In this document: positions 41,497 through 41,665 of the stretch, piece after piece | Position numbering within the stretch: position 1 is the first letter of the stretch | How the letters are laid out: every line of letters begins with the position of its first letter | Assembly: GCA_963708025.1 (NCBI GenBank) | Contig: CAVPSB010000015.1 | Span: 32,001-96,000 of the forward strand | Origin: an uncultured Candidatus Rokubacteria bacterium | GTDB lineage: Bacteria; Methylomirabilota; Methylomirabilia; Rokubacteriales; DASRDR01 | DNA: 64,000 bases | Direction of reading: 5' to 3' | Notes under the pieces: model-generated | Database searches by the model: none | Told to the model about the DNA's origin: nothing | The model's input: only the letters and a program-made list of their open reading frames with translations | Made by a program: the position numbers and the translations under genes

Positions 41497-41665
41497 TTCT
41501 GGCCCGACCTTGCAGGATGCGGGCTCTGGCGGCCCTGGCAACTGTTCGGGCTCGTCAAGGATCGGACGTGACGACCCACGCTCACCCACGGCCTCTTCAG
41601 ACCCAGGGGGAAACGATCTGTCACGTCCAAGGCAACGGACCACGCTCTCATGAGCGGTCCGACTC
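41497..41665 (-). ncRNA. Predicted IS110 bridge RNA (5' hairpin, target-binding loop, donor-binding loop)
   Basis: Stems GGACGTGAC/GTCACGTCC and CCCGA/TCGGG enclose segments matching the target (CCCCCT, GGGTGAG) and the donor junction (ACAGTTGC, TGCAAG); ends approximate. Confidence 0.8.

Follow-up and report, generated by a model that had tools for sequence, protein, structure and literature searches.

A probably active IS110-group insertion sequence with a predicted IS621-type bridge RNA in a REP-like repeat of a high-G+C genome

The minus strand of our window, the 64,000-nt stretch of DNA analysed here, carries a small transposase gene preceded by a non-coding region, and the question that this locus raises is whether the two together make up a bridge-RNA system whose guides match its own target and ends. 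A sequence-only reading had described a 5' hairpin, two loops, four guides, small hairpins between the guides and an ORF, and all of these motifs are found on the minus strand exactly where that reading had placed them. We conclude with considerable confidence that the locus is an intact, probably active IS110-group insertion sequence, which would employ bridge-RNA-guided recombination in the same manner as IS621; its transcription, RNA binding, circle formation and recombination we infer from IS621. The features on which the argument depends are as follows, in their order along the minus strand.

41682..41688, minus strand: left target flank (LT), 7 nt, TACCCCC, adjoining the element; the left target guide matches its positions 4-7
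41680..41681, minus strand: left copy of the CT core, placed by comparison of copies and empty site
41482..41679, minus strand: left end (LE), 198 nt, non-coding, encoding the proposed bridge RNA; identity of the two copies begins here, and the region is conserved in homologs
41672..41677, minus strand: -10 hexamer TATATT of the predicted junction promoter, two bases into LE
41637..41660, minus strand: 5' stem-loop GGACC-GCTC/GAGC-GT-GGTCC, present in the minimum free energy (MFE) and centroid structures
41564..41628, minus strand: target-binding loop with basal stem GGACGTGAC (41620-41628) / GTCACGTCC (41564-41572)
41605..41613, minus strand: left target guide (LTG) TTTCCCCCT, 9 nt, in the same sense as the target top strand
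41581..41587, minus strand: right target guide (RTG) GGGTGAG, reverse-complementary to CT+CACCC at 7/7 positions
41579..41580, minus strand: dinucleotide CG of the target loop, a putative handshake guide; its C may pair with the G at donor position 7
41502..41551, minus strand: donor-binding loop with basal stem GCCCGA (41546-41551) / TCGGGC (41502-41507)
41538..41545, minus strand: left donor guide (LDG) ACAGTTGC, equal to the last seven element bases plus the first core base (8/8)
41509..41514, minus strand: right donor guide (RDG) TGCAAG, reverse-complementary to CT+TGTA (6/6 including one G-T wobble)
41492..41498, minus strand: Shine-Dalgarno-like AAAGGAG, within a small hairpin GGAGC/GCTCC that abuts the ATG
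40531..41481, minus strand: gene of the 316-aa recombinase, with a RuvC-like DEDD domain, a coiled coil and a Tnp domain
40529..40534, minus strand: -35 hexamer TTGACA of the predicted junction promoter, which overlaps the stop codon and has 13 bases of right end after it
40516..40530, minus strand: right end (RE), the 15 nt that follow the stop codon, with the terminus ACAGTTG at 40516-40522
40514..40515, minus strand: right copy of the CT core, placed by comparison of copies and empty site
40509..40513, minus strand: right target flank (RT), CACCC, with which the right REP-like hairpin unit begins

The limits of the element can be derived from its copies and from an unoccupied target. The host genome (8.17 Mb in 49 contigs, 71.2% G+C) holds two full copies, one at this locus and the other on contig C13, which align over about 1,342 bases with 52 differing columns. 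Just one of these columns, 41113, lies within 41685-40507, and the remaining ones are all in the flanks, which diverge outside this interval. Since the difference at 41113 is synonymous, the proteins of the two copies are identical. The genome yields 57 matches altogether; the 55 that are not full copies are short matches to the flanking repeat, several of which pair up into uninterrupted repeat copies. The empty repeat copy on C13 reads ...GGTTTCCCCCTCACCCTGACC..., with a single CT where the occupied sites have a CT on each side. We therefore delimit the element as 40516-41679 on the minus strand, i.e. an IS110-group insertion sequence of 1,164 bp with one CT core besides. Both boundaries bear the CT dinucleotide, and no target duplication beyond it is present. 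The target that the sequence-only reading had reconstructed is thus displayed by a natural, uninterrupted repeat copy, which the guides of the target loop match. The left flank TACCCCC has the counterparts TCTCCCC at the second copy and TTTCCCC at the best empty site.

The element lies between an S1-domain gene (38931-40433; Pfam S1, 1.7e-67) and an EamA transporter gene (41836-42798; EamA, 5.2e-24), and the only ORF between these two, on the minus strand, is that of the 316-aa protein. Its non-coding sequence is distributed very unequally, with 198 nt upstream of the ATG versus 15 nt from the stop codon to the flank.

Within the locus, all four guides can be read against the sequences that they would recognize. 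The left target guide TTTCCCCCT agrees in full (9/9) with the stretch of the C13 empty site that ends in the core, and the two occupied sites, TACCCCCCT and TCTCCCCCT, agree with it at 7/9 and 8/9; both mismatch the nine-nucleotide guide within LT positions 2-3. This guide had earlier been read as CCCCCT (41605-41610), a segment that is indeed present but that extends to nine nucleotides (41605-41613) when compared with the best empty site. The nine-base match in the window owes part of its length to the consensus of the repeat. On the donor side, the G-T wobble of the right donor guide is common to most homologs, and six homolog rows have ACAAG, a full match. The 27-nt string composed of the target-loop stem and the left guide occurs once in the 64,000-nt window and in none of 100 shuffles.

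Agreement between guides and flanks was then evaluated among relatives, a comparison that had been proposed together with the sequence-only reading and that turned out strongly positive. A scan with one genome per species gave 548 relatives, of which the best 80 loci, at 55-65% protein identity, were kept; these belong to Nitrospirota, Methylomirabilota, Chloroflexota, Gemmatimonadota, Actinomycetota and others. For 77 of the 80 loci an upstream region was obtainable, which together with the window makes 78 sequences (71 distinct). They align well across both loops, the donor-loop guides being near constant and the target-loop guides variable. Guides were read by alignment column, and the flanks are each locus's own left and right ends. 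Guide and flank were both available for the right target guide in 68 of 82 entries (the 80 loci and the two genome copies). In these 68 loci, RT agrees with the guide at 5/5 positions in 54, at 4/5 in seven and at 3/5 or fewer in seven. When one locus is counted per distinct guide (n=35), 25 match at 5/5 and the mean is 4.46, as compared with a permuted mean of 1.46 (sd 0.18, maximum 2.26); none of 10,000 permutations of the flanks among loci, which preserve composition, reached the observed mean. The left target guide gives a similar result over 75 entries with 51 distinct guides, with a mean of 4.33 versus 2.77 for permuted pairs (maximum 3.31) and again 0/10,000, and LT is matched at 3/7 or fewer in 16 of the 75 loci. 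The score for this guide permits a one-base register shift, of which 22 of 68 distinct combinations make use; the same scoring was applied to permuted pairs.

In eight loci the right-end terminus or the left donor guide departs from the common form; in seven of these, guide and terminus share the variant, L108 being off by one base. At the level of single positions, RT bases 1-5 match in 52-59 of 61 comparisons and LT positions 3-7 in 41-60 of 68. LT positions 1-2 are near chance (16/46 and 9/68), implying that the effective left guide is shorter than the nine-nucleotide reading; taken together, the per-position matches suggest that the clade seems to read about 5 + CT + 5.

The loci that score poorly include several kinds. 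In L054, L055, L080, L085 and L104 the left end fails to align with the common CTTGTA start, L106 has the variant start CTTGTAC, and in L059 and L065 the right flank is unlike the guide. The latter two lie on a Dehalococcoidia chromosome that carries three copies, in which the right flanks of L059 and L065 fit the right target guide at 1-2/5 and that of L057 at 5/5. Off-target insertion or later rearrangement may account for the misfit of L059 and L065. Other relatives are present in five to eight copies per genome with identical RNA and matching flanks, such as L036-L043 on one Nitrospirales chromosome and L058/L060/L063/L064/L076 in a Gemmatimonadales genome; in one such case the flank reads CT+TACAA in 8/8 copies.

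Handshake guides have been described for IS621 as dinucleotides 3' of the right target guide and the right donor guide, which pair with the other DNA after strand exchange (PMC11208158). In our set, all 58 scored loci have a C directly after the right target guide, facing an equally invariant G at donor position 7. Pairing with target position 7 is possible for the base that follows the right donor guide in 61 of 65 loci, three of them through A-T. These positions are consistent with the handshake-guide idea; the first pair, being invariant, provides no covariation, and with so little variation the test is a weak one.

The fold of the RNA was examined both in the single sequence and in an alignment. 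Folding of the 210-nt region yields a z-score of -1.85, with 9 of 200 shuffles folding as well. The MFE structure bears out the 5' hairpin and the target-loop stem of the sequence-only reading; the donor-loop basal stem, however, is absent from it, and both target guides are paired with each other. Because this single-sequence result is weak, we base the case for the structure on covariation instead. The covariation alignment (A1) comprises 51 distinct sequences and four helices, i.e. the target basal, target apical, donor basal and donor apical helices. The target-loop stem is lengthened by GATC (41615-41618) / GGTC (41573-41576), and its apical hairpin GGTCT/AGGCC (41590-41603) lies between the two guides, as does the donor-loop apical hairpin GGGC (41532-41535) / GCCC (41521-41524) in its own loop.

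In these four helices, 85.1% of the cells are standard pairs, a share that drops to 32-53% once the partner is displaced by 1-3 columns. Compensatory changes on both sides are found in 17 of 28 pairs, and none of 500 shuffles reaches any of the five measures. By helix, the pairs changed on both sides are 10 of 13, 2 of 5, 3 of 6 and 2 of 4 for helices 1 to 4, respectively, and helices 3 and 4 are paired in 81.4% and 95.6% of cells. With an RNA located in LE upstream of the ORF and four covarying helices, the proposed IS621-type bridge-RNA layout is borne out. The 5' stem-loop behaves differently from these helices. Its segment has a z-score of -1.69 in the window and a family mean of -0.77, with 21 of 50 homolog segments below -1, and its sequence is not conserved among homologs. 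Since it is unalignable across the family and its fold signal is weak, its conservation is only weakly indicated.

A search of the locus against Rfam returned no family that reaches its threshold. The sole model touching the locus is RF02234 (sX15), which matches 41499-41643 on the plus strand with 22.9 bits and an E-value of 0.4. Among 20 homolog loci, the same model gives matches in eight (L032, L046, L057, L070, L075, L081, L083 and L104) at about 1035-1200 on the minus strand, with 29-40 bits and E-values of 0.0034-0.67. The matches span positions 1-159 of the model and cover the bridge-RNA region, all of them scoring below the gathering score of 55, and every one is on the strand opposite the recombinase gene. 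The Xanthomonas sX15 RNA is described as having a complementary partner, asX7, and ten homologs in Stenotrophomonas maltophilia (PMC3300014). Given the opposite strand of the matches and the asX7 partner, the Rfam sX15 model of a Xanthomonadaceae sRNA may describe the complement strand of an IS110 left end, that is, of bridge RNAs of this kind.

The protein agrees with the RNA in its assignment. Its 316 residues contain DEDD_Tnp_IS110 (PF01548, 5.6e-25) and Transposase_20 (PF02371, 3.2e-17), and a sequence search of the PDB finds solely the IS621 transposase (8wt6 and five further entries) and the ISCro4 transposase (9t56), with E-values of 7.8e-39 over residues 5-304 and 3.5e-38 over residues 3-304 for 8wt6 and 9t56, respectively. 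In the PDB alignment, D11, E55, D97, D100 and S235 stand opposite the catalytic motif segments of IS621, with GIDVAKD, LEATG, KTDRIDA and DSG aligned to GIDTAKE, IEATG, KTDTVDA and ESG; the catalytic residues reported for IS621 are D11, E60, D102, D105 and S241 (PMC11208158). Each of the five residues is kept in 64-65 of 65 distinct homologs, and S235 in all 65, in a count over the 79 ORFs that remained once L051 and L103 (frame truncated or interrupted) and L107 (runs off its contig) had been left out. As judged from domains and alignment, the 316-aa protein is an IS110-family DEDD/Tnp recombinase, as had been proposed. The genome (G000) also contains five further IS110 DEDD-domain matches distinct from the element, four of them above the Pfam cut-off, at C14:20670-21140, C31:269824-270258, C31:21355-21786, C31:30276-30701 and C18:42594-42896.

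The expression signals of the element become apparent when its ends are joined. In the integrated locus (40400-41850), a promoter and terminator scan detected no sigma-70-like promoter site and no terminator. With the ends joined including two core bases, TTGACA of RE and TATATT of LE are 17 nt apart and agree with the consensus at 11 of 12 positions, so that a promoter split across the RE-LE junction is predicted. Among 48 distinct homolog elements, the -35 hexamer is TTGACA or TTGACT in 35, and the -10 agrees at 4/6 or more positions in 30, with a TATCTT-like hexamer at the same place; a rule of 9 of 12 positions is satisfied by just 24 of the 48. A promoter rebuilt at the RE-LE junction is the arrangement published for IS621 (PMC11208160; PMC13626964), and weak bridge-RNA expression is reported for integrated IS621 copies (PMC13626964). 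A further hairpin, GGAGC-CACC-GCTCC at 41482-41498, covers the Shine-Dalgarno-like sequence and extends up to the ATG; it could restrain recombinase synthesis from read-through transcripts.

On the model of IS621, we propose that a circle would form by excision at the two CT cores. In the circle, TTGACA from RE and TATATT from LE would drive transcription from about 41664-41665, and the transcript would fold into the 5' hairpin, the target-binding loop and the donor-binding loop. The 3' guide of the target loop, GGGUGAG, would pair with CT+CACCC on the top strand, and the donor-loop guides ACAGUUGC and UGCAAG would act likewise on the joined element ends. Presumably, a tetramer of the 316-aa recombinase, with its DEDD RuvC-like site and Ser235, would then exchange strands at the CT cores.

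The site at which the element resides is itself a repeat of the host genome. The element is inserted in a REP/BIME-like palindromic repeat (40434-40515 and 41680-41835) consisting of two inverted hairpin units of the CCCTCTCCC...GGGAGAGGG types with a spacer of about 20 nt. The 11-mer CCCCCTCACCC, which stands at the right unit's edge, has 39 sites genome-wide (e.g. G000 C13:439290-439384); most of them border a hairpin unit CCCTCTCCCCC...GGGGGAGAGGG, and about 15 show two inverted units arranged as at the occupied sites. The natural target is (T)CCCC-CT-CACCC at the edge of the REP-like repeat. There are 39 such 11-mers in 8.17 Mb, yet the element is present in only two copies.

Beyond this genome, the exact 316-aa protein is on record in NCBI/ENA, and its 90% cluster has six members, none with a name. 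Of 24 listed runs, 20 contain near-identical DNA; they come from 16 metagenome studies of soil, bog and sediment. The pieces that match the element with 0-2 differences end or turn unlike at 40507-40509 in all four runs compared, and in runs X2 and X13 they also end or diverge at 41685; these positions are the limits of the guide-matched target bases. A contig from an RNA library, covering 41368-41751, continues into a left flank unlike either genome copy; it attests the presence of the sequence and is uninformative on transcription, as the uncovered parts of the runs are on presence. The contig breaks and this third left flank suggest that the element occupies several sites in close relatives. 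One contig of run X13 joins 40513 to 41680, with two letters that fit either side. We considered this joint as an excision product and rejected it, because its left side has 9 other letters in 76 and belongs to a paralogous empty repeat. Joints from near 40515 to 41704-41720, with 22-40 letters between, proved likewise to be repeat units with other spacers.

Is the upstream structure a guide RNA at all? It might be a mere 5' leader regulating how the transposase mRNA is translated or how stable it is, the flank matches being accidents of a C-rich repeat. The Shine-Dalgarno sequence beneath its hairpin beside the ATG would suit such a leader, as would the unexceptional single-sequence fold and the C-rich, low-complexity flanks. 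However, composition-keeping permutations never reproduce the observed matching for either target guide, the stems covary whereas the loops vary, and the donor guide tracks variant right-end termini in seven of eight loci; we therefore regard the leader explanation as very improbable. An assignment to the IS1111 group, with a downstream-encoded seekRNA, would account for the same two Pfam domains. In IS1111 elements, however, the RNA is described in a long right end downstream of the gene (PMC11208160), and here RE is 15 nt after the stop codon as against 198 nt for LE, with the covarying RNA upstream of the ORF. Moreover, the first and last 11 nt of the element, inspected by eye for subterminal inverted repeats of the IS1111 type (7-17 bp), are not inverted copies. 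The IS1111/seekRNA arrangement is rejected on this anatomy, which already refutes it, and we give it practically no credence.

Compared with these two, it is a less remote alternative, though still an unlikely one, that the element, while genuinely an IS110 bridge-RNA system, has become immobile in this genome, its copy pair being either recently arrived or silenced and no longer excising or inserting. The small number of copies in relation to the 39 matching 11-mers points in this direction, as do the lack of a promoter-like site in the integrated state over the scanned interval and the assignment of the X13 joint to a paralogous empty repeat rather than to an excision here. Against it, the two copies differ by one synonymous base and their ORFs, guides and catalytic residues are intact; the contig breaks at 40507-40509 and 41685 and a third left-flank variant suggest further sites in relatives; and weak expression in the integrated state has been reported for the active IS621 too (PMC13626964). 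The preferred reading remains that of an intact and probably active element guided by its own bridge RNA.

What the element contributes is mostly a clear instance of a known process. One genome exhibits both copies, an empty site, four guides and a split promoter, which makes it a clean example of bridge-RNA-guided transposition, and the comparison of the family indicates, position by position, which target bases the clade reads. An unnamed 316-aa protein and its upstream RNA gain an annotation, and the REP-like repeat can be annotated as a landing pad. Knowledge of the mechanism is unchanged by it. We tentatively suggest, as a possibility slightly short of even, that the element represents a distinct, compact and widespread clade of bridge recombinases, in which a near-symmetric 5 + CT + 5 target code would go with a contiguous right guide of 7 nt. 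Were it active and reprogrammable, the element could serve as an orthogonal tool alongside IS621 and ISCro4, and the present ortholog, being small and from a high-G+C host, would be a candidate programmable recombinase.

IS621 of Escherichia coli is among the closest systems known, and the bridge-RNA layout and the strand rule have been published for it (PMC11208160; PMC13626964); our locus obeys the strand rule too. The two elements share a RuvC-like DEDD domain and a Tnp domain with a catalytic serine, a CT core at both boundaries, an RNA encoded in the left end, the order of 5' stem-loop, target loop and donor loop in that RNA, a promoter split over the RE-LE junction, and a natural target of the REP type, as described for IS621 in PMC11208160. 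Their proteins are distant (E 7.8e-39) and differ in length, 316 aa versus the 326 aa given for IS621 (PMC11208158). The right target guide of our element is a contiguous 7 nt (5 + core), whereas a four-base right guide was used in the IS621 analysis (PMC11208160). Also unlike IS621, the clade tracks the left flank at LT positions 3-7 only, in addition to the core, and the element has an RE of just 15 nt in a host genome with 71% G+C. These differences are of degree.

ISCro4 / IS622, the bridge recombinases employed for human genome rearrangement (10.1101/2025.05.14.653916), belong to the same family and are as distant from the element as IS621 is (9t56, E 3.5e-38). ISPpu9 and ISPpu10 of Pseudomonas putida are likewise IS110-family elements, with copies described as lying all in a conserved REP (PMC12288879; 10.64898/2026.03.19.712850); the likeness is one of published description, since hosts and repeats are other than those of our element and ISPpu9 has an sRNA gene downstream of its transposase. 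Bridge RNAs were predicted by Durrant et al. for thousands of orthologs and for 85.7% of the IS110 elements in ISfinder (PMC11208160), so that the element adds a member to a system class that is already known. The features that define the IS110 group and IS621-type bridge RNAs, so far as sequence can test them, are present in it, with handshake positions that are consistent and hardly vary.
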